A stretch of 64,000 nt of DNA from Vicinamibacterales bacterium. GTDB taxonomy: Bacteria; Acidobacteriota; Vicinamibacteria; Vicinamibacterales; SCN-69-37. The stretch spans positions 1 to 64,000 of the forward strand of contig DATEGZ010000200.1 of assembly GCA_035279905.1 (NCBI GenBank). The letters run 5' to 3'. Shown here piece after piece: positions 49,560 through 64,000 of the stretch; within the stretch, counting starts at the first letter, position 1, and each line of letters opens with the position of its first letter. The translations under genes and the position numbers were made by a program. The notes beneath the pieces were generated by a model, which was not told the origin of the DNA, made no database searches, and saw only the letters and a list, made by a program, of their open reading frames with translations.

Positions 49560-51377
49560 TTGTCGTTTCAACTCACTCCCGAAGCCAGACGACGATGGGC
49601 CTGGCGCCTGGCCGTGGCGCTGGTCGTCGGGTACGCGGCGTGGCTGCGGCTCGTCATCCTCGTCGAGCGATTCGGCCCGTTCGATCATCCCGGCTGGCTC
49701 GTCACGCTCTCCCACGTCGTCGAGGCGCCCAAGCCGATGCTCGCGCCCGCGTCGTGGGTCTGGGCCAAGAGCGACCCGCCGTACGTCGGCGGCGACCCCA
49801 TCAACTACCTGAAATTCGCGCGCGAGCTTCCGAGCTTCTACGGCGCGACGGTTCGCGAGCCGCTGTTTCTTGAAGTCATCCGCATCTTCTTCAAGGTCAC
49901 GGCCAATCAGGACGTCGCGATCAGCTTTGCGTCGCTGACGTTCTCGGTCCTATGCGTGCTCGCGACGTATCTCGTTGGCGGTCGAGCGATCTCGCGCCCG
50001 GTCGGTCTTGCGGCCGCGTTGGCGCTCGCGATCGAGCAGGAGTTCGCGGCGTGGGCACCGGATGGCTGGCGTGACGAGACGTTTGCGGCGTTCATCCTGC
50101 TGACCGCGTGGGCGCTCCTCCGGTTGAAAGACAAACGCACGTGGCAGAACGCCGTGATCGTGGGCGTGGTCGGCGCGGCGGCGTGCCTGACACGCATCAC
50201 GTCGGTCAGCGTCGTAGTCCCCGGCTTGATCTGGGTGGCGTGGCCGCGCGAGCGGGCCGCCTGGCGGACGTCAGCGCGGTACGCCGGAATCGCCGCGCTG
50301 GTCACGGCGGTGCTGGTCGCGCCGTACCTCGTCAACTGCTACCGCCAGACCGGCGACGCGCTCATCGCGATCAACTACCACACGCGGTTCTATCTGGCGG
50401 CTGAAGGCACGATCACCGACGCGCCGCCCGGCGCGCTGCGCTACGCCGCGGCCAAGTTTCGCGCGCATCCGATCGGCGAGACGGACACGGCCGTACGCGG
50501 TCTCGTGCAGTATCCGTTCGTCACGAAGTTTCGCGGGTTCTACGGCTGGTGGCCGGCGCTCGGGCCGATCCTGCGCGCGCTCTCGGCCCTCGGCCTGCTG
50601 ATCTGGATCTGGCAGCCGCGCGGGCGGTTCCTGCTGCTCGTGCTGATCTCGTCGCTCGCGCCGTACATGATCACGTGGACGCTGCAGGGCGGCGGCGAGT
50701 GGCGGTTCACGATGCACGCGTACCCGTTCTACCTGCTGGCCGCATTCGCGGCCGCGGCCTGGCTCGTGGCGGCCGCGCGATCGCTCGTCGCGAATCGTTC
50801 AACGGCGTTCGCGTCGTGGCGCGCGCAGCGCGTTGGCGTGAAGGCGCTCGCCACCGCGGGCCTGGTCGCGAGCGGCTGGCTGGCGAGCTTCTGGGCGCCG
50901 TACTTCGTCGCGCGCGAGGGCTTGCTCGCCGGCGAGCCCACGTCGGTCGCGGCGGGCGACAACGACGGCGTGTTCTTCAGCACAGGCTGGACGGGCCTCG
51001 TGCACTCCGGCATGGTCACGTCACGGTTCGCGAATGCCGAGCGGGCCACGCTGCGCGTGCCCTTTCCGGAGCGCCGCGGCTACCACCTCGTGCTGAGGAT
51101 GGACGCGATTCCCGACGCCAACGGATCGCCGCAGCGCGTGCGTCTCTTCATCGACGACCGGCCCTCCGGCGTGTTCGATCTGGCGTGGAATGAGGAGCGC
51201 GTCGGCGCGCTTACGCTCGATCTGCCGGCGAGCGAGGTCTCGCCCGGGCGCGCGCGGCTCGATTTCGTCGCCGATCGCGTCGCGCCGCTGGGGCCCGCGG
51301 AAGCGTCGTTCCCCGACCTGCCCGCCTCGGCGCCCGTCGCGTTTCGGCTGTGGTACGTGCGGGTTACTCCTCAATAA
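49560..51377 (+). CDS. Polytopic membrane protein with a C-terminal soluble domain, putative GT-C-fold glycosyltransferase (ArnT/PMT-like)
   Basis: About 10 transmembrane helices followed by a soluble domain of about 150 aa. The start is uncertain (TTG 49560 or GTG 49614). The first ~30 codons of the track ORF are a translation of the repeat element. Confidence 0.5.
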   Translation: MSFQLTPEARRRWAWRLAVALVVGYAAWLRLVILVERFGPFDHPGWLVTLSHVVEAPKPMLAPASWVWAKSDPPYVGGDPINYLKFARELPSFYGATVREPLFLEVIRIFFKVTANQDVAISFASLTFSVLCVLATYLVGGRAISRPVGLAAALALAIEQEFAAWAPDGWRDETFAAFILLTAWALLRLKDKRTWQNAVIVGVVGAAACLTRITSVSVVVPGLIWVAWPRERAAWRTSARYAGIAALVTAVLVAPYLVNCYRQTGDALIAINYHTRFYLAAEGTITDAPPGALRYAAAKFRAHPIGETDTAVRGLVQYPFVTKFRGFYGWWPALGPILRALSALGLLIWIWQPRGRFLLLVLISSLAPYMITWTLQGGGEWRFTMHAYPFYLLAAFAAAAWLVAAARSLVANRSTAFASWRAQRVGVKALATAGLVASGWLASFWAPYFVAREGLLAGEPTSVAAGDNDGVFFSTGWTGLVHSGMVTSRFANAERATLRVPFPERRGYHLVLRMDAIPDANGSPQRVRLFIDDRPSGVFDLAWNEERVGALTLDLPASEVSPGRARLDFVADRVAPLGPAEASFPDLPASAPVAFRLWYVRVTPQ

Positions 51378-51384
51378 GGCACGG

Positions 51385-51545
51385 GTTCTTCAGGTACGAC
51401 CGGTACGTCAGGTACTCGGAACGCACTGGCGCTGGCCAACTTATTTGGTTTTTCTAAAGAAGCGGACTGAGATGCAGGTTCCTCGTACCCGACGTACCGG
51501 TCGTACCTCTCGTACCTGTCGAACCCTGCCCTGTCCGGAAACGCC
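51385..51545. repeat. Family-4 GGTACGNC-array hairpin with a long AT-rich loop
   Basis: Arm CAGGTACGACCGGTACGTCAGGTACTCGGAAC pairs with GGTTCCTCGTACCCGACGTACCGGTCGTACCTCTCGTACCTGTCGAACC. The loop is about 55 nt and contains TTATTTGGTTTTTCTAAAGAAG. Confidence 0.7.
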
Positions 51546-51602
51546 CTGTAGACCGGTGCTATAGTCAATCGAATTCCCCGTTCGATTTCAGGAGGCATTC
51601 CC

Positions 51603-52319
51603 ATGCGCTTGGTTCGTCCCTTTGCAATTGCAGTCGCTTTCGCGTGTCTCATGCCTGCCGTGCCAGGCGCCCAGATGGACCCGGACCGCGTCGTCCCGAA
51701 CGGCGGGATTTCAGCCGCCGGCTGGCAGGGAAAGATTGATGCTGGCTCGGTCGCGCAAGGCCGAACGATCAACGACTCGAAGTTCGCGCAGGAAGGCGCC
51801 GCCCTGCACCTGATCATTGGACCGGCTGCCGTGTATTGGAATCCCGCAAACACGGCCAGCGGCGACTACACGATCAAGGGCACCTTCAAGGAACCGAAGA
51901 TGCAGGATGCGAACAGCCATCCGCATCCGTACGGCATCTTCATCGGCGGCCACAACATGGGCACCGACAAGATGAGCCTCGTGTACTGCATTGCGTATGG
52001 CGATGGCCGCGCGCTCGTACGCGGGTTCAATCCAACGGCAGGTCCGCCCACGGGCAACGGCCATGGCGTCTTCACGCCGATGCGCGCCGCGGCAAACGCC
52101 GCCGTGAAAAAGGTGGCGCCCGGTGAGTCGGTCACGCAGGATATTTCGTGGACGGTGAAGGGCGACTCCGCCAGCTGCACGATTAACGGCACGGTCGTCG
52201 CGACCTACACCAAAGCCGATCTCGTCGGACCGGACAAGCTCGAGAGCTTCGACGGCGTGTATGGCATCCGCATCAGCCACAACGTCGAAGCGATCGTCAC
52301 GGGCTTCGGCAAGCAGTAA
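51603..52319 (+). CDS. Secreted hypothetical protein (DUF1080 / LamG-like jelly-roll)
   Basis: Signal peptide MRLVRPFAIAVAFACLMPAVPGA. Size and beta-rich composition match the DUF1080 3-keto-disaccharide hydrolase-like family. Confidence 0.45.
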   Translation: MRLVRPFAIAVAFACLMPAVPGAQMDPDRVVPNGGISAAGWQGKIDAGSVAQGRTINDSKFAQEGAALHLIIGPAAVYWNPANTASGDYTIKGTFKEPKMQDANSHPHPYGIFIGGHNMGTDKMSLVYCIAYGDGRALVRGFNPTAGPPTGNGHGVFTPMRAAANAAVKKVAPGESVTQDISWTVKGDSASCTINGTVVATYTKADLVGPDKLESFDGVYGIRISHNVEAIVTGFGKQ

Positions 52320-52322
52320 GAC

Positions 52323-52470
52323 TGGGGGCACTGGGTCATTGGGTCATTGGGTCATTGAGCTATTGGGTTATTGAGGGTGAACGCTCGCATCCAGACCGGG
52401 CGTTTCGCTCCCAGGACGCGGCCCCAATAGCCCAATGACTCAATGGCCCAATGGCCCGATGGCCCAACGG
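52323..52470. repeat. Family-3 GGGTCATT-array hairpin element
   Basis: Arm CACTGGGTCATTGGGTCATTGGGTCATTGAGCTATTGGGTTATTGAGGG. Complementary arm CCCCAATAGCCCAATGACTCAATGGCCCAATGGCCCGATGGCCCAACGG. Fills the convergent gap from 52319 to 52472. Confidence 0.8.
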
Positions 52471-52471
52471 C

Positions 52472-53251
52472 TCAGTACTTCTCCGCGATCCGCTCGGCCT
52501 TCAGCTTCTTCCCGCGGTCCTTCACCTTCCGCTTCGGCAGCTTCACCTTCTCGCTCGGCGCGGTCTTGTACGGAATCTGCTTGAGCAGGTGCGTGATGAG
52601 ATTGAGGCGCGCGCGCTTCTTGTCGTTCGAGTCCACGACGAACCACGGCGCGTGCTTGGTGTGGGTGGCCTCGAACATCTCGTCGCGCGCCCACGTGTAG
52701 TCGTTCCAGCGCGTGTACGACTTCAGATCCATCGGCGAGAGCTTCCAGACCTTGCGCGGATCGTTGATGCGCCCCTCGAGACGGCGCGTCTGCTCGTCCG
52801 GGCTCACCTCGAGCCAGTACTTCAACAGGATCACGCCGGACGCGACGATCGCCTTCTCGACGTTGGGGGCCACACGCAGGAACTCCTTCGCCTGGTCCTC
52901 GCTGCAGAAGCCCATGACGCGCTCGACGCCCGCGCGGTTGTACCAGCTGCGATCCCAGATGACGATCTCGCCTGCCGCCGGCAGATGCGGCAGATAGCGC
53001 TGGATGTACATCTGGCTGCGCTCGCGATCGGTGGGCGTGGGCAGAGCGATGACCCGGAAGATGCGCGGGCTGACGCGCTCGGTGATCGCCTTGATCGTCC
53101 CGCCCTTGCCCGCGCCGTCGCGGCCCTCGAAGACGATGCAGATCTTCAGCCCTTTGTGCACGACCCATTGCTGGAGCTTGACCAGCTCGCCGTGCAGCTT
53201 CTCCATCTTCTTGTCGTAGTCCTTGCGTTTGAGCTTCTTGTCGTCGCCCAC
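52472..53251 (-). CDS. ppk2: Polyphosphate kinase 2 (PPK2 family)
   Basis: VFEGRDGAGKGGTI Walker A. WDRSWYNRAGVERV and lid motifs are typical of PPK2. GTG start. Confidence 0.85.
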   Translation of the reverse strand: MGDDKKLKRKDYDKKMEKLHGELVKLQQWVVHKGLKICIVFEGRDGAGKGGTIKAITERVSPRIFRVIALPTPTDRERSQMYIQRYLPHLPAAGEIVIWDRSWYNRAGVERVMGFCSEDQAKEFLRVAPNVEKAIVASGVILLKYWLEVSPDEQTRRLEGRINDPRKVWKLSPMDLKSYTRWNDYTWARDEMFEATHTKHAPWFVVDSNDKKRARLNLITHLLKQIPYKTAPSEKVKLPKRKVKDRGKKLKAERIAEKY

Positions 53252-53280
53252 GGCACCCTCATTTCATCCCGACGCCCGCG

Positions 53281-53640
53281 TCACTGGCTGAGCCAGGCGC
53301 GCGCGTCGGTCATTTTGTCGGTCGGAAAGAACTCCACGGGCGCCCGCCGCAGGTCGGCGACGGCAAACATGAGCGCTTCGCTGCGCCAGATCTCGTCGCC
53401 CACGATGGCGATGCGATCGATTTCGTCGCCGTGCGCCATGTAGAAGCTCAGGTCGCTCCAGTTGTCGGCGTCCGCCCAGCCCTCGAACCGCTCGAGAAGC
53501 ACCAGCAGCTTCACGTGTCCGTGGCTCGCGATCTCGCGCGCCAGCTGCTGCTGACACTTCTCGAACTCCGCCTTCCGCATAACGCCGCTCGCGTTGAGAC
53601 GGTAGGTCGATCCGCCCTCGGGCGTCAGGGTGAGGGACAT
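53281..53640 (-). CDS. SpoIIAA-like / STAS-fold small protein (DUF3478-like)
   Basis: 119 aa. KLLVLLERFEGWADADNW...IDRIAIVGDEIW pattern. Confidence 0.5.
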   Translation of the reverse strand: MSLTLTPEGGSTYRLNASGVMRKAEFEKCQQQLAREIASHGHVKLLVLLERFEGWADADNWSDLSFYMAHGDEIDRIAIVGDEIWRSEALMFAVADLRRAPVEFFPTDKMTDARAWLSQ

Positions 53641-53662
53641 CGCGATCCTTCCCGACCGCCGC

Positions 53663-55420
53663 CTAGGCGGTCTGCAGCTCTGGTTCGGGTTCCGGCAGAT
53701 CGCCGGTGTCGGCCCGCAGGAACCGCCGCTGGTTCGGACGGATCGTGGCGAGCAGTTCCTTCCGGGTCTTGATCTTGATCGGGCGGCCCAGGTAGATCTT
53801 GCCCATCTTCCCCATCAGCGATTCCGGGAACGCGCTCGCGAACATGAACATCGGCCACGTGAAGTTCGGGCCGTTGAGCTTGCGCAGCTTCCACAGCCAC
53901 AGGCCAATCGCGCCCGTACGCCACGCCATCGGACCCCACCAGCTCATCTGACCCGGCCGGAGGTTCATCTTCCAGCACTTCATCATCAGCTGCCACTGGA
54001 GAGGCGTGAGATTGCGCGTCTCGGTGACGCCCTTCGCCTGCTCGAGCCGCGTGTCGTGCAGCGGCGTGAAGATCGACGGGATGAAGAACGCGAACAGCCC
54101 GCGCCGCTCGACTTCGTAGATCAAATCGAGCGTCGCCTTCGTGTCCTCGTCCGTCTCGCCGGGGCTGCCGATGATGAGCGTCATCGCCGGGAACCAGTTG
54201 TTCTGGTTGAGCACCGTCAACCCGTTGACGACGACGCTCTGCCAGTCGTCGATCGAGAACGGCACGCCTTTGCTCGGCATGATCTGTTTGCCGAGCCGCA
54301 CCGATCCCGTCTCGAGGCCGATGAGCGGCACGAGCGCGCGCTTCTCCGGATGCGTGCTCAGTACAGGCAGCCGAATCGGGCTCTTGTCGAGGCACAGCTT
54401 CGAGAGGCGCTCGATCAACACCGGATCGACGACCGCCGGCGCGATCGTCGCGTGGCTCAGCACGTGTTGCTCGACGCCGGGCGTGCGAATGATCTCGCCG
54501 TAGAGATCGAGCAAGGCCTCGCGGTTCGGGAAATAGAACGGCGTCTCGGTCCGGACCTGGCCCCAGATGAACATGTCCTCGGTCGCGAGCGAGATCTGCT
54601 TGTTGCCGTCGCGCACGTTGGCGCGGACGCCGGCCATGATGTGGCTCTTCGGCACGTCGATCTGCGGATTCAGATCGGGCACGCAGAACTGGCACCGCCG
54701 GCCGCAGCCGGTCGTCATCTCGACGACGCCGAAGGTCGTGCGCTTGTCGGGCACGAGGATGGCCTCGCGATCCTTCGGGTGCCCGACTTCGAGTTGCCGC
54801 GGCAGGTCCTCGCCGCGGATCGCCTTGTCGAAGAGCGTCATCGTGTCGGCCGACTCGCTCCGCCCTTCGACGACGCAGTCCACGCTGAGCATGTCCCAGG
54901 CGTTGTTCTGCGTGATCTGCCAGCCGCCCGATCCGCCGACGATCACCTTGAAGTTCTTGCGGTGCGGACTGTTCTTCACGATCTCGAACATCTTGGTCGC
55001 GTAGAACGAGTTGATGGGCTGCTTCGACTCGCCGAAGATCGACGTGTAGACGCCGGCCGCGAACGTCACGCCGAGCGGGTTGTGCGTCGAGATCGCCACC
55101 ACGCGCGTCTTCGGGCCGATGAACTTGTGCAGGTCGTCCGGATAGCAGGCGACGATGTCGTCTTCGGAAAACGAGCGCAGCAGCGACTTCTCGAGCACGC
55201 GGACCCCCGCCGGCATGTACCGCGCGGAGCCGTCGGCGTTGTGCTCGACTTCACGCCACTTGGGATACTTGCGATTGAGGATGCCTTCGAGCCACATGGG
55301 CAGCGAGGCCATGCTCATCTGGATGAAGTACCCGGCGTGGTCGATCGTCTCGGTGAAAGGCGCCGTGAGGACGATCAGCGCCCCCTCGGTGTGTTCCCGC
55401 TGTTCAACGTCGTCATTCAT
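53663..55420 (-). CDS. B12-binding-domain radical SAM enzyme
   Basis: CGRRCQFC (Cx3Cx2C) at about residue 250, preceded by a Rossmann-like B12-binding-type N-terminal domain. ATG overlaps the stop of the upstream protease gene. Confidence 0.7.
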   Translation of the reverse strand: MNDDVEQREHTEGALIVLTAPFTETIDHAGYFIQMSMASLPMWLEGILNRKYPKWREVEHNADGSARYMPAGVRVLEKSLLRSFSEDDIVACYPDDLHKFIGPKTRVVAISTHNPLGVTFAAGVYTSIFGESKQPINSFYATKMFEIVKNSPHRKNFKVIVGGSGGWQITQNNAWDMLSVDCVVEGRSESADTMTLFDKAIRGEDLPRQLEVGHPKDREAILVPDKRTTFGVVEMTTGCGRRCQFCVPDLNPQIDVPKSHIMAGVRANVRDGNKQISLATEDMFIWGQVRTETPFYFPNREALLDLYGEIIRTPGVEQHVLSHATIAPAVVDPVLIERLSKLCLDKSPIRLPVLSTHPEKRALVPLIGLETGSVRLGKQIMPSKGVPFSIDDWQSVVVNGLTVLNQNNWFPAMTLIIGSPGETDEDTKATLDLIYEVERRGLFAFFIPSIFTPLHDTRLEQAKGVTETRNLTPLQWQLMMKCWKMNLRPGQMSWWGPMAWRTGAIGLWLWKLRKLNGPNFTWPMFMFASAFPESLMGKMGKIYLGRPIKIKTRKELLATIRPNQRRFLRADTGDLPEPEPELQTA

Positions 55421-56943
55421 TTCGGTGACTGCAATCTCATCTCATGGCGGAGCAAGTCGATGGACACTTTGTATCGTCCCAGGAACTGGTGCCCGACGAT
55501 CCCGCCGATGTTGAAGCCAAGAAGCGCGCTGGGCGCATCGAGGTTGAGGACCACGACCGACGCCTGCTGGAACTGGGCGCCCTTCGCGAACTCGATGTCG
55601 ACGAACGGCAGCAGGAACGCCGCGCGGTCCCACCCCGACGTCCCGTACACACGGACCGGCACCCGCCGGACCTCTGGATCGACCGGTAATTGCGCCGCGA
55701 CCGTGCGGCTGATCGACATCGCTTCGCCGCCCGTGTCGACGACGAACCCGGCGGGCGACGAGCCGTTGACCATCCCGCGCACGACCGCCAGCCGCTGAAC
55801 TCTGAGCGGCAGCGTGAAATCCGCCGGCTCGTTCGGCAGCTCCCGCGCCATCGTGAGCGTGTGATTGACGTAGTCGAGGCTGACCGACAGCCCGAAGACC
55901 AGCGGCGAGAAGCCCTCGCCCTCACGAGCCAGCTGGCTCTTGATCGGTGGGTCCTTGATCAGGCACGGCACGTTGCGCACGTGGAGCGCGCCGATCTCGA
56001 GATCGTCCATGCGCGCGATCTGCAGGCTGCGGTAGCCGATGCCGAGGTCGCCGATGCCGGCGCTCTGGAGCGCCGCGAACGCCTGCACGTGGTTGCGGCT
56101 GGCGACTTCGGTCGAGAGCACGGCCTGATCGGCGCCGGTGTCCACGGCGAGCTCAATCGCCGGGCCGCCATTGACGCGGCCGGTCACGAGCACGCGGCCC
56201 TCTGACACCCGGAACGGCATCGTGTACGTCTCGGCCTTACTGACGATCTCGAGCGGGATCTTGTTCTTGAACGTCGCGAGAAACTTCGACTGCGTCTTCG
56301 CCCACTTCACCAGGTCCGTGTCGTCGCGCTTGGGCAAGAGCTCGACGTACTTGAGGAGCGCATTCGACGCGTCGGTGAACTTGTGCGTCTGCTCGTAGAT
56401 CGAGGCGAGCGTGTACTGGTAGTTCGGCTCCGTCGGATTGAGCGAGATCGCGCGGGTGACGTCCGCCATCGCCTCGTCGAACCGGCGCTGGGCCGCGAGC
56501 GACCGCCCGCGGCCGTGCAGCGCGCCCGGATCCTGGGGATTGATCTTCAACGCGTCCGCGTAGCGAGCCTCGGCGTCGAAGAACAAGCCGAACGTCCACA
56601 GCGAGTCCGCGTGGATGGACACCGCGGCGGCGTTCTGCGGATCGCGCGCGGCGATGTCGGCGCCTTCCTTCGCGCCGTCCTTGAAGAGCCCGAGCCGCAG
56701 TAGCGATTTGACCACGCCGGCGCCAGCGCGCACGCGCACGTTCGCGTCGTCGGTCTCGCGCGCGCGGCGGTAGACGCGCAACGCGTCGCCGTAGTGCGAG
56801 CCGGCCATGAGCACGTCGCCGGCCTGCAACAGCTCGGTGGCCGCAGGTAACGGCTGCTGCTGCGCGGACAGGGCCAGCGTGCAGGCCGCGGCCGCGATCA
56901 CACCAATGTGCAGGCTCGGTGAGAGCCGTCCGGACGAGAACAT
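55417..56943 (-). CDS. Secreted TPR protein with two retropepsin-like (clan AA) aspartic protease domains
   Basis: GAGGAGGAG Shine-Dalgarno before the ATG at 56943. Signal peptide MFSSGRLSPSLHIGVIAAAACTLALSA. TPR region. Two D-T/S-G-A motifs (VDTGADQAVLS, VVDTGGEAMSIS). Confidence 0.65.
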   Translation of the reverse strand: MFSSGRLSPSLHIGVIAAAACTLALSAQQQPLPAATELLQAGDVLMAGSHYGDALRVYRRARETDDANVRVRAGAGVVKSLLRLGLFKDGAKEGADIAARDPQNAAAVSIHADSLWTFGLFFDAEARYADALKINPQDPGALHGRGRSLAAQRRFDEAMADVTRAISLNPTEPNYQYTLASIYEQTHKFTDASNALLKYVELLPKRDDTDLVKWAKTQSKFLATFKNKIPLEIVSKAETYTMPFRVSEGRVLVTGRVNGGPAIELAVDTGADQAVLSTEVASRNHVQAFAALQSAGIGDLGIGYRSLQIARMDDLEIGALHVRNVPCLIKDPPIKSQLAREGEGFSPLVFGLSVSLDYVNHTLTMARELPNEPADFTLPLRVQRLAVVRGMVNGSSPAGFVVDTGGEAMSISRTVAAQLPVDPEVRRVPVRVYGTSGWDRAAFLLPFVDIEFAKGAQFQQASVVVLNLDAPSALLGFNIGGIVGHQFLGRYKVSIDLLRHEMRLQSPK

Positions 56944-57113
56944 TACTCCTCCTCGCAAGTCTCGCCGCCGGAGACCCGGCTGGCGCGTACGTCGCGGAGG
57001 GGGTAACCGCGCATAGTTAGTAAGGGTAACGAGGGTATCACACGGCTCGAGGCTTGCCCGGTCATGGCAGGTATAGAATCCGGGCCACGAAGCCAATCGA
57101 TGCGAAGCAGGGC

Positions 57114-59540
57114 ATGATCGGCCGTACGCTGTCGCACTACACCCTCGTGAGCGAACTGGGCCGCGGAGGCATGGGTGTCGTCTACCGCGCCATCGATGTC
57201 ACTCTGGGCCGCGAAGTCGCGATCAAGGTGCTTCTGCCGGAGTTCGTCGCGGATCCCGAGCGCCGGCACCGCTTCGTTCAGGAGGCCCGGGCGGCCGCGG
57301 CGCTCGAGCATCCGCACATCGGTGCTGTGTACGAGGTCGATGAAGCCGATGGCATGACGTTCATCGCGATGGAGCTCATCCGCGGTGAGCGCCTCAAGGA
57401 GGTACTCGCGCGCAGCGGTCTCTCAAGCAGCCGGGCGATTCAGCTGGCGGTCGAGATCGCCGAAGCATTGGGCAAGGCACACGACAAAGGCATCGTCCAC
57501 CGCGATCTCACGCCCTCCAACGTCGTCATCACCGAGGACGGTCACGCGAAGGTCATCGACTTCGGGTTGGCCAAGCTGGTCGAGCCGATAGCCGGTCCGA
57601 CGAGCGAAGCGGAGACCAGAGCGCGGACCGGAAGCGGTCTCGTCATGGGCACGACGGCCTACATGTCTCCGGAGCAGGCGCGCGGCAGGCCGGCTGACCA
57701 CCGGTCGGACGTGTTCAGCCTGGGTCTCGTTCTATTCAAGATGCTCTCTGGCGATCTCGCCTTCAACGGCCCCAGCGGCGCGGAGACGCTGAACGCGATC
57801 ATCAACCAGCCCGATCCACCGCTGAAGCTGTCGTTCGAAGGTGAGCCCGCCATCGAGCTTCGGCGGATCGTGCACAAGTGCCTCGCGAAGGATCCACGCG
57901 ATCGCTACCAGACGATGAAGGATCTCGCCGTGGATCTCCGCGAGGCGGCGAGGCGGCTGGACGCGACGTCGACCGCGCCGGTCACGGCTGTGCGGTCCGG
58001 GACCACGCGTGCTCGTCACTGGATCCCTTTCGCCGTCGTGGCCGCGATCCTGGCCATCGTTGCGGGGTACGGCTGGTATCGGGCGCACGGATCCGCGACG
58101 GCTCCAGTCGAAACGGCCCGGAAGCGGATCGCCGTGCTGCCATTTCAGAACCTCGGCGCGCCCGAGGATGAGGACTTCGCCGCCGGCGTTTCTGAGGAAA
58201 TCATGAGCCGGCTGTCTGCTGTCAGCCGGCTGGCCGTCATCTCACGAAACAGCGTGCTGCCGTACAAGAAAACCGACAAGAGCTCGCGCGACATCGGCAA
58301 GGAGCTCGATGTTGACTACCTCGTCGTCGGCACCGTGCGTTGGCAGCCCGCCAAGGACGGACCTGGCCGCGTTCGCGTCACGCCGCAGCTCATTCACGTC
58401 GCGGACGACACTCAAGTCTGGTCCGACACGTACGAGCGCGGCTTCGAGGAAGTGTTCGCTGTCCAGTCTGATATCGCAACACACGTGATTCAGGAGTTGA
58501 ACATCGCCGTGCTGGCCCTCGAGCAGACGATCATCAAGGGCCGGCCGATGCCAAACTTCGAAGCCTATCGCGAGTACTTACGCGGCTACTACACGGCCTA
58601 CCATGCTCCGCGTCCGGATAGCCGGGAGGCGTTGCAACACTTCGAGCGCGCCGTCGCACTGGATCCCGGGTTTGCCGCCGGCCACGCTGCCGTCGCAAAC
58701 ATGGCCGCGACAATGTTCTTCTACGACGAGGCCACGAGCGCCTTGGAGGACAAAGGGAATCGCGCCATCGAACGAGCTCTCGCGATCGATCCCAACTTGG
58801 CGGACGCATACCTGGCGCGCGGCACGTTCTTGTGGTCCCAACCGCACGGGTTCGCGCACGAACCAGCGCTGCGTGAGTATCACCGGGCGCTCGCACTGAA
58901 TCCCAGCCTGGCGGAGGGCCGAGTCGCAATCGCTCGGATCTACGAGCACATCGGCCTCCTCGATGAGGCACGGGAGCAGTTGACGCAGGCGCTCGCTCTG
59001 GACCCTGCCGCCGCCACAGCGAGGGGCCGCATCGAGCTGACCTACCTGTGGCAACACGACTACCAGCGAGTCGCAGAAATCGCGCGGTCGGCGGCCCCCA
59101 GCTGGTTCAAAGTCGAGATGCTCAGCTACCTTGGCCAGGATCAAGCCGCCCGAGACCTCGCCGCCACGCTTGCCCCCAATCCCTGGGTGCCGAATATGAG
59201 CTCGGGATTCAACATTGTTCTAATGGCGAAGCTAGGCCAGCACGAGGGCGTCAAGGCCGCGCTGCCGGTGCTGGAGAACCTCGCGCGAAACCCCCGAGGC
59301 CTCAGTCACTTCCACCACGCGCAGTACAGTCTCGGCCTCGCTCATGCGCTGCTTGGCCATAAGCGTGAAGCCGTCAGCTGGCTGCGCATGGCCGCAGCCC
59401 AGGGCTTTCCCTGCTACCCGTTCTACGCCAAGGATCCAAATCTCTCCGGGCTCAAGGGGGATCCGGATTTCGAGGCGTTCATGGCGGAATTGAAGGCGCA
59501 GTGGGAGCAGCTCCGAATCGAGGCCGCCAAGCACTCGTAA
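57114..59540 (+). CDS. Ser/Thr protein kinase with a transmembrane helix and a C-terminal TolB-N-like/TPR sensor region
   Basis: GRGGMGVVYRA...AIK, HRDLTPSNV and DFGLAK kinase motifs. Transmembrane helix WIPFAVVAAILAIVAGYGWY. Repeats in the C-terminal region. Confidence 0.85.
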   Translation: MIGRTLSHYTLVSELGRGGMGVVYRAIDVTLGREVAIKVLLPEFVADPERRHRFVQEARAAAALEHPHIGAVYEVDEADGMTFIAMELIRGERLKEVLARSGLSSSRAIQLAVEIAEALGKAHDKGIVHRDLTPSNVVITEDGHAKVIDFGLAKLVEPIAGPTSEAETRARTGSGLVMGTTAYMSPEQARGRPADHRSDVFSLGLVLFKMLSGDLAFNGPSGAETLNAIINQPDPPLKLSFEGEPAIELRRIVHKCLAKDPRDRYQTMKDLAVDLREAARRLDATSTAPVTAVRSGTTRARHWIPFAVVAAILAIVAGYGWYRAHGSATAPVETARKRIAVLPFQNLGAPEDEDFAAGVSEEIMSRLSAVSRLAVISRNSVLPYKKTDKSSRDIGKELDVDYLVVGTVRWQPAKDGPGRVRVTPQLIHVADDTQVWSDTYERGFEEVFAVQSDIATHVIQELNIAVLALEQTIIKGRPMPNFEAYREYLRGYYTAYHAPRPDSREALQHFERAVALDPGFAAGHAAVANMAATMFFYDEATSALEDKGNRAIERALAIDPNLADAYLARGTFLWSQPHGFAHEPALREYHRALALNPSLAEGRVAIARIYEHIGLLDEAREQLTQALALDPAAATARGRIELTYLWQHDYQRVAEIARSAAPSWFKVEMLSYLGQDQAARDLAATLAPNPWVPNMSSGFNIVLMAKLGQHEGVKAALPVLENLARNPRGLSHFHHAQYSLGLAHALLGHKREAVSWLRMAAAQGFPCYPFYAKDPNLSGLKGDPDFEAFMAELKAQWEQLRIEAAKHS

Positions 59541-63382: not shown

Positions 63383-64000
63383 ATGATCGGCCAGACCGTG
63401 ACGCACTACCGCATCCTCGACAAGATCGGGGAAGGCGGCATGGGTGTCGTTTATCGCGCCGAGGACACGCGGCTCGGACGTCAGGTCGCGGTCAAGTTTC
63501 TGTCGTCGAAGCTCTCGGCCGATCCCGCGGCGCTCGAGCGGTTCCAGCGCGAAGCCCGGGCGGCCTCGTCGCTGAACAACCCGCACATCTGCGCGCTCTA
63601 CGACATCGGGCGGGACGGCGATCTGCCGTTCCTCGTCATGGAGCTGCTCGACGGGCAAACGCTGCGCAACCGCATCAATGGTGCGCCGCTGCCGGTCCCG
63701 CTCCTGCTCGAGCTGGCCGTGCAGGCGACCGACGCGCTCGAGGCCGCGCACGCCGCGGGCATCGTGCACCGCGACATCAAGTCCGCCAATATCTTCGTGA
63801 CGGCGTCCGGACAGGTGAAGATCGTCGACTTTGGTCTGGCGAAGCTCGCGCGTCCGGCGGGCGCGGGCGCCGAGGTCGATCCGTTCGCCGACACGGCGCT
63901 GGCCCGCCCGAGTCCGCCGGCGACCGAGTCGGGCCAGACGTTCGGCACCCTCTCCTCGATGTCGCCCGAACAGGCGCGCGGCGAGGAGCTGGACGGCCGG
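63383..64000 (+). CDS. Ser/Thr protein kinase, N-terminal part; continues beyond the window
   Basis: GEGGMGVVYRAED...AVK, HRDIKSANI and DFGLAK. Confidence 0.8.
   Translation, partial: MIGQTVTHYRILDKIGEGGMGVVYRAEDTRLGRQVAVKFLSSKLSADPAALERFQREARAASSLNNPHICALYDIGRDGDLPFLVMELLDGQTLRNRINGAPLPVPLLLELAVQATDALEAAHAAGIVHRDIKSANIFVTASGQVKIVDFGLAKLARPAGAGAEVDPFADTALARPSPPATESGQTFGTLSSMSPEQARGEELDGR

Follow-up and report, generated by a model that had tools for sequence, protein, structure and literature searches.

Four genes packed on the minus strand of an acidobacterial contig raise a simple question: do they form one functional system, or have they only come to lie side by side? They are found in a stretch of 64,000 nucleotides from a Vicinamibacterales bacterium (contig DATEGZ010000200.1, positions 1 to 64,000; hereafter the window), whose G+C content is 64-70% throughout and whose named best matches are Vicinamibacterales, phylum Acidobacteriota. 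From first to last, the genes encode a protease with tetratricopeptide repeats (TPR) and two aspartic protease half-domains, a radical S-adenosylmethionine (SAM) enzyme (hereafter rSAM), a SpoIIAA-like protein of the STAS/SEC14 type, and a class I polyphosphate kinase 2 (PPK2). An earlier note on this DNA, made from the letters alone, saw in them an operon that might serve a peptide- or protein-modifying pathway or a proteolysis module. We consider it probable that three independent units, namely the protease, the rSAM and the STAS-PPK2 pair, have come to lie side by side in this lineage, and that the row is not one functional system. Because the arrangement is restricted to a single narrow group of soil Acidobacteria, a chance neighbourhood is preferred here to a new pathway.

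How far does the linkage reach? Adjacency of the protease and the rSAM is confined to a clade in which the rSAM is at least 88% identical to that of the window. Within this clade all four genes are found in the window and L085 (rSAM 99%) and in L086, L087 and L093 (91%). One locus, L003 (91%), has the protease, the rSAM and the STAS gene without PPK2, and the protease and the rSAM only are held by L178 (88%), L001 (90%), and L088 and L089 (about 92-93%). The last two are the nearest relatives after L085, yet they lack the STAS-PPK2 pair, and directly after their rSAM gene comes the gene for a 238-aa protein that is convergent with PPK2 in the window. When metagenomes were scanned with the protease alignment, six of the best 80 loci had a protease of at least 70% identity, and the rSAM was present in all four of these with enough downstream sequence. 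At the 74 loci of 53% identity or less, neither the rSAM nor STAS nor PPK2 was found at any (0/74, with at least 600 nt of downstream sequence in 59 and at least 1.8 kb in 35). These distant loci (L094-L167) often share a convergent hotdog-fold acyl-CoA thioesterase gene about 58 nt downstream (49/74), a same-strand gene for a NuoI-like 2x[4Fe-4S] ferredoxin upstream (47/74) and, further downstream, a protein of about 1,000 aa (36/74). The window protease is either a displaced ortholog or a paralog of the proteases encoded there.

What accompanies the rSAM elsewhere? Its homologs number thousands, and the best 120 are all at least 79% identical to it. Clustering at 50% gave 991 matches at E≤0.001, with full-length relatives down to 30-35% identity, among them proteins of archaeal metagenome-assembled genomes (MAGs); the distant relatives bear generic names such as 'YgiQ/UPF0313' and 'B12-binding domain-containing radical SAM protein', and one comes from a Korarchaeota MAG. 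Among the best 80 loci of the GTDB scan, the orthologs are 65-85% identical and belong to Vicinamibacteria, Blastocatellia/Pyrinomonadaceae, Terriglobia and Bryobacterales/Solibacteraceae. The protease adjoins the rSAM at 0/71 of the GTDB loci with at least 1.6 kb of upstream sequence, and STAS or PPK2 adjoins it at 0/69 of those with at least 1.3 kb downstream. Even at 81% (L002) and 86% (L004) identity the rSAM stands without these partners. All-against-all clustering of the flanking open reading frames (ORFs) within 6 kb on either side of 84 loci gave a most recurrent family that is found at just nine of them. The rSAM gene stands by itself, and throughout the phylum its conservation is very strong. 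For example, between the window and L001 the rSAM is 90% identical, while five neighbouring genes are 65-81% identical. Since it is solitary and so strongly conserved, we infer that it probably acts on a housekeeping target, be it a macromolecule, a lipid or a cofactor, rather than on a secondary metabolite. The earlier note had held that the linkage would be incidental if the four genes were not co-conserved in related genomes. The neighbourhood search finds no co-conservation, with patchiness even at 88% identity and above, and the functional-module reading therefore fails on the note's own terms.

The STAS-PPK2 pair has been found at a second place. In the L001 genome, a STAS gene (60% identity to that of the window) and a PPK2 gene (86%) lie about 880 kb from the rSAM on the same 5.09-Mb contig. 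This pair (L168 5001-10348; ena:ERZ25039534 contig_26058, 1015653-1026000) has a spacer of about 30 nt and stands between a VIT1-family gene and atpB-E-F-H-A-G, so that it directly precedes the F1Fo ATP synthase operon on the same strand. The pair is a movable two-gene cassette that has been relocated between these sites. On account of the protease-centred and STAS-centred surveys, the cluster decomposes into the protease, the rSAM and STAS-PPK2, and the four genes have probably come together by an accident of synteny within one genus, the STAS-PPK2 pair being mobile.

Is this pair then the sole real link? In such a case the STAS/SEC14-like protein would be a regulator, by binding a ligand or a partner, of the regeneration of nucleoside triphosphate (NTP) from polyphosphate by PPK2, and the rSAM would be an irrelevant neighbour. 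The same gene order with a similar spacer in two unrelated contexts (behind the rSAM in the window and L086, and in L168 ahead of the ATP synthase operon) and the high identity of the L168 PPK2 to that of the window argue for it. However, most of the STAS homologs examined have no PPK2 alongside (L170-L177 and L003), just one independent second context has been seen, and a literature link between PPK2 and STAS was not found among the papers retrieved. We hold this reading to be possible but rather unlikely. The contexts of the other STAS homologs, L170-L177, are unrelated to that of the window: between an ABC transporter (upstream) and a phosphopantetheinyl transferase gene (downstream), after an MtrB/multihaem cytochrome cluster, or after a histidine kinase gene and a DUF1508 gene and convergent with a cation-efflux gene.

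Both proteins of the pair are ordinary members of their families. The STAS-like protein scores 69 bits with PF11964, where the cut-off is 25, and an identical protein is named 'STAS/SEC14 domain-containing protein' at NCBI. Only PF11964 is matched and not PF01740, and no SpoIIAB/RsbW kinase or PP2C phosphatase is found among the neighbouring ORFs; the proteolysis module with STAS partner switching, which the earlier note had suggested, is thus left without a switching kinase or phosphatase beside the STAS-like gene. PPK2 matches PF03976 at 318.8 bits and TIGR03707 at 357.7, above the equivalog cut-off of 301.8, and is therefore assigned to class I, the P. aeruginosa type. It falls below the cut-offs of the two-domain class II model and of PPK2_rel_1, and it has a single PPK2 domain with the Walker A motif GRDGAGKGG. 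Class I PPK2 regenerates NTP from nucleoside diphosphate (NDP) and polyphosphate (PMC8776046). The window enzyme would do likewise, and its STAS partner may regulate it.

The protease and the rSAM also differ in compartment and, sharply, in the rate at which they evolve: compared with L001, the protease is 72% identical and the rSAM 90%. The protease has a signal-peptide-like N-terminus, and the rSAM has no hydrophobic segment. A Sec-type signal peptide would take the protease out of the cytoplasm, where its TPR domain could bind or recruit protein or peptide ligands, and the two half-domains, with one DTG aspartate each, would fold like the lobes of pepsin to make one active site. The rSAM, on the other hand, is expected to work in the cytoplasm because it needs a reduced iron-sulfur cluster and SAM. 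There a [4Fe-4S] cluster on C239, C243 and C246 would cleave SAM to give a 5'-deoxyadenosyl radical that attacks the substrate. Its N-terminal domain may hold cobalamin for methyl transfer, as in MgmA, TsrM and CysS, or may be a cofactor-free scaffold, as in AprD4.

There are points that speak against three independent units, and they should be weighed. The genes are tightly packed, with 22 nt between the rSAM and STAS genes and 29 nt between STAS and PPK2, and the sequence ATGA at 55420-55417 joins the protease stop to the rSAM start in an overlap of 4 nt that is also present in L088, L089 and L178. No intrinsic-terminator-like site was found in the gaps between the four genes, the terminator-like matches all lying inside coding sequence. 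Since there is no recognisable terminator between the genes and the stop and start overlap, the four probably share one transcript in this organism, and co-transcription can give a lineage-specific coupling that is invisible to comparative genomics. Since the four-gene order persists where the protease has diverged to 73% identity (L086), it cannot be entirely recent. Finally, our scans of GTDB species representatives (one genome per species) and of metagenomes took in the best 80 loci each, and adjacency was scored by tblastn at E≤1e-5 in flanks of 6-8 kb, a procedure by which partners elsewhere in a genome are not noticed.

These points lend some support to another explanation, that a genuine module was recently assembled in the genus, in which, for example, the expression or activity of an extracytoplasmic protease would be coupled to a modification made by the rSAM and, via STAS and PPK2, to polyphosphate and NTP status. 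Compact co-directional genes with a translational overlap and terminator-free gaps would suit it, and so would the same four-gene order in at least two diverged lineages, the window with L085 and L086 with L087 and L093, whose protease identity is just 73-75%. Against it, the closest relatives L088 and L089 (92-93%) lack both STAS and PPK2, L003 lacks PPK2, L001 and L178 have the protease and the rSAM only, and the L001 genome keeps its STAS-PPK2 pair at a separate locus. A protease that is predicted to be exported and an rSAM that is predicted to be cytoplasmic do not fit it either, nor does the lack of a partner-switching kinase or phosphatase nearby. We therefore regard such a module as quite unlikely, and prefer the juxtaposition of three units.

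The arrangement itself is what the earlier note had described: four co-directional minus-strand ORFs, borne out by the ORF table and the reverse-strand sequence, with the overlap, the two gaps and the Shine-Dalgarno (SD) sequence all in place (Table 1). SD-like sequences also precede the STAS and PPK2 genes but none precedes the rSAM gene, and the rSAM may be translated by coupling to the protease gene. A longer protease start at TTG-57096 was rejected: its extension is unconserved and the homologs begin with MF, so that the start is placed at the ATG. A promoter scan found no sigma-70-like sites, and an RNA family scan of 51000-58000 found no cobalamin or SAM riboswitch, with a lone chance match to a miRNA model below threshold. 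None of the four genes had a match in the PADLOC scan for defence systems.

Table 1. Positions of the four genes and of other features mentioned in the text.
Feature	Position	Strand	Details
TPR/aspartic protease gene	55417-56943	minus	508 aa; ATG at 56943
Radical SAM enzyme (rSAM) gene	53663-55420	minus	585 aa
SpoIIAA-like/STAS-SEC14-type protein gene	53281-53640	minus	119 aa
Class I PPK2 gene	52472-53251	minus	259 aa; GTG start
Shine-Dalgarno sequence GAGGAGGAG	56946-56954	minus	2 nt before the protease ATG; read directly
Imperfect inverted repeat	52325-52466	none	45-nt arms, 82% complementary; 45-nt spacer
Gene convergent with PPK2	51603-52319	plus	238 aa
Hanks-type membrane Ser/Thr kinase gene	57114-59540	plus	C-terminal TPRs
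Second Hanks-type Ser/Thr kinase gene	63383-64000	plus	begins near the end of the window

What kind of protease is the first gene product? It matches PF13975 and PF13650, two stretches each, as well as TPR families, and the catalytic motifs are DTGA (268-271) and DTGG (403-406). In an alignment of 14 protease sequences with identity down to 47%, D268-T-G and D403-T-G/A-G are invariant, and so is a C-terminal GGI-GH motif. With its D-T/S-G motifs and its PF13650/PF13975 matches the protein belongs to the retropepsin-like proteases of clan AA, although it scores 36 bits with TIGR02281 (clan_AA_DTGA), below the cut-off of 57.95; the family has more than 2,300 detectable relatives. The hydropathy maximum lies at residues 7-25, the sole strongly hydrophobic segment, in an N-terminus that reads MFSSGRLSPSLHIGVIAAAACTLALSA/QQQ, with ALSA/QQQ after the segment. 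This is read as a Sec signal peptide, and export is predicted. In the AlphaFold model (predicted local distance difference test, pLDDT, 78) the TPR helices take up about 200 residues, and an all-beta domain with two lobes comes after them. The model's best fold match in the PDB is 9iy9, a putative endopeptidase of B. fragilis (TMq 0.61, TMt 0.72, 432 alignment columns), which shares the fold of the whole protein. Chymosin, pepsin and plasmepsin come after it, and the protease part superposes on these three. The model thus points to a single chain in which two retropepsin half-domains make up a pepsin-like pseudo-dimer. In L003 (6460-7981) the protease gene is split between two called ORFs: one encodes the TPR part (204 aa) and the other, overlapping it by about 20 nt, the double-protease part (309 aa). 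This points to a frameshift or a pseudogene, or else to a fault in the assembly.

The TPR-double-retropepsin architecture is not new, since 9iy9 is a solved relative. Pepsin homologues exist in bacteria (PMC2761423), APRc of Rickettsia is a characterised bacterial retropepsin-like protease (PMC4140852), and secreted retropepsin-like enzymes of P. aeruginosa have been linked to stress tolerance (PMC12239564). The window protein resembles such enzymes in its DTG catalytic motifs and its predicted export. While APRc and the Pseudomonas enzymes are homodimers of single domains, it has two half-domains fused behind a TPR domain.

The rSAM is more difficult to classify. The earlier note had called it a cobalamin-dependent radical SAM enzyme. 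The second part of this name stands, as do the other domain calls (TPR/double-retropepsin, SpoIIAA-like and PPK2); the first part, B12 dependence, is unproven. The cluster motif CGRRCQFC provides a single CX3CX2C at C239, C243 and C246, and GCGRxCxFC is invariant in the family alignment. The window protein scores 23.9 bits with the Pfam Radical_SAM model, below the cut-off of 29.5, which its homologs exceed. With the motif and a partial TIM-barrel core it is a member of the superfamily. There are seven cysteines in all, and since the four outside the triad are unconserved, a single iron-sulfur cluster is expected. In the structural model (pLDDT 85) a five-stranded Rossmann/flavodoxin-like N-terminal domain (residues about 13-205) precedes the radical SAM barrel and a helical C-terminal region. 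No transmembrane-like segment is present (maximum KD19 1.24), and the enzyme is predicted to be soluble. Between the first two beta-strands of the N-terminal domain some 70 residues (about 20-88) are inserted; this conserved stretch carries the motifs FIQMSMASLP and Y-x-P-x-G-L/V-R-x-L/V-E and could be a family-specific element for binding a substrate or a partner.

Does the N-terminal domain bind cobalamin? PF02310, the B12-binding family, gave no match at E≤0.01 for the window rSAM and 10 diverse homologs, and a Pfam scan of the rSAM found no TRAM, SPASM or DUF4070. The NCBIfam scores are far below their cut-offs, with 38.9 bits against 251 for TIGR00089 (MiaB/RimO) and 37.8 against 251 for TIGR04013. 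For the 10 homologs, too, Pfam and NCBIfam yield no curated family; MiaB/RimO, TIGR04013, TIGR04014 and the ladderane rSAM are all sub-threshold. The hidden Markov model search that the earlier note had proposed, with HpnJ and BchE in mind, places the enzyme in no well-characterised subfamily: no curated model of HpnJ, HpnP, HpnR or BchE is among the NCBIfam matches. The nearest folds are RimO, MgmA, TsrM, MiaB, AprD4 and CysS, and judging by the model the fold is no closer to MgmA/TsrM than to RimO/MiaB and AprD4. The rSAM sits in the broad 'Rossmann-like domain + rSAM' group, in an uncurated subfamily. AprD4 shows that this architecture alone does not prove cobalamin use. We see roughly an even chance that the N-terminal domain holds cobalamin for C-methylation.

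The comparison with single known enzymes leads to the same group. The best match of the family profile in the PDB is MgmA (E 7e-14), and it is limited to the radical SAM core. MgmA, a class B cobalamin-dependent enzyme that C-methylates a glutamine of methyl-coenzyme M reductase (MCR; PDB 9ccb), is 15-18% identical to the window rSAM, which scores 20.6 bits with the MgmA model TIGR04014 (cut-off 360). The window enzyme is about 170 aa longer and has a helical C-terminal extension as well as the large insertion in its N-terminal domain described above. To our knowledge MCR is absent from bacteria. AprD4, a radical SAM diol dehydratase that has a B12-like domain (PDB 6fd2), is 14% identical; its gene shares an aminoglycoside cluster with that of a partner reductase, whereas the window rSAM gene is solitary. 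Several candidates were rejected. A methylthiotransferase such as RimO or MiaB (PDB 4jc0, 7mjv) would need three auxiliary-cluster cysteines, and these are missing: the N-terminal domain has only C92 and C182, both unconserved. The absence of a TRAM domain and the TIGR00089 score rule out this identity as well. Tes, or GDGT-MAS, needs two CxxxCxxC motifs (PMC8941075) and the window rSAM has one, and Gms is a SPASM/twitch protein (PMC11214058), while the window rSAM has no SPASM match.

Could the rSAM still modify a peptide or protein, for example by C-methylation, with the protease removing a leader after export? This would be a pathway like those of ribosomally synthesised and post-translationally modified peptides (RiPPs); the earlier note had suggested a methylating pathway that modifies peptides or proteins. 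Radical SAM enzymes with a Rossmann-like N-terminal domain do include peptide and protein methylases, MgmA is the best match in both sequence and structure, and the protease gene lies directly upstream with its stop overlapping the rSAM start. But a precursor ORF would not fit into either gap, and among the 84 loci the rSAM has no conserved small ORF beside it. The SPASM/twitch cysteine set is absent, no RiPP recognition element (RRE) was detected by Pfam, and the relatives of the protease outside the clade never adjoin an rSAM. Moreover, RiPP maturases are patchy and fast-evolving, unlike an rSAM that is solitary at 65-91% identity phylum-wide. We consider such a pathway extremely improbable.

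A lipid target may also be asked about. The rSAM might be the first known member of an acidobacterial family, spread over the phylum, that acts on membrane lipids, either as the synthase of iso-diabolic acid, a membrane-spanning lipid, or as a C-methylase of iso-diabolic acid or of branched glycerol dialkyl glycerol tetraethers (brGDGTs). The classes of the best 80 rSAM loci, Vicinamibacteria, Blastocatellia, Terriglobia and Bryobacterales/Solibacteraceae, we take to be subdivisions 6, 4, 1 and 3. Producers of iso-diabolic acid include Acidobacterium capsulatum, Ca. Solibacter usitatus, Blastocatella, Vicinamibacter silvestris and Luteitalea pratensis, and non-producers include Holophaga foetida, Thermoanaerobaculum aquaticum and Thermotomaculum hydrothermale. 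Iso-diabolic acid is made by Acidobacteria of subdivisions 1, 3, 4 and 6, and Acidobacteria are reported to be without Mss homologs under stringent criteria and mostly without Tes homologs, so that another route is needed (PMC13159169). The overlap is a correlation only, and it may mirror the source of most acidobacterial genomes. That the rSAM is predicted to be soluble and has no lipid-gene neighbours weighs against a lipid role, and we judge it very unlikely.

Around the row there are further genes and a repeat. The imperfect inverted repeat lies between the convergent PPK2 and 238-aa genes. Its arms consist of 8-nt tandem units, GGGTCATT / CAATGRCC (repeat families D1, D2 and I1); the unit has eight matches in the window, all within the repeat, where 0.1 would be expected by chance. 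In L088, which is without STAS-PPK2, the repeat is absent and a different hairpin-like sequence occupies the site. A bidirectional terminator or an insertion scar is possible. The 238-aa protein has no Pfam or NCBIfam match and begins with a signal-peptide-like N-terminus, MRLVRPFAIAVAFACLMPAVPGAQ. It is conserved in the syntenic clade, with 69-95% identity in L001, L003, L088 and L089. On the other side, the divergent membrane kinase gene that the earlier note had placed at 57114 does have an ATG there, and its longest ORF starts at 57054. The kinase scores up to 289 bits with the PADLOC models of PD-T4-6 kinases, most likely a generic kinase-domain similarity, and the product of the second kinase gene is 44% identical to it over 207 aa. 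In L086 and L087 the divergent position upstream of the protease holds, in place of the kinase gene, a gene for a 1,041-aa protein that has no Pfam match.

What do these results mean for the biology of the group? All four proteins fall in known superfamilies, and the operon itself is of minor importance. It is a warning that genes which overlap and run in one direction may owe their synteny to a recent accident: the coupling of protease and rSAM vanishes below about 88% rSAM identity. Of more interest is the rSAM family, which has no curated model and stands alone at 65-91% identity across the major classes of Acidobacteriota. This constraint suggests an important reaction in a very abundant soil phylum. 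In addition, a STAS/SEC14-like gene that travels with a class I PPK2, once to a place before the ATP synthase operon, hints at a regulated conversion of polyphosphate to NTP.

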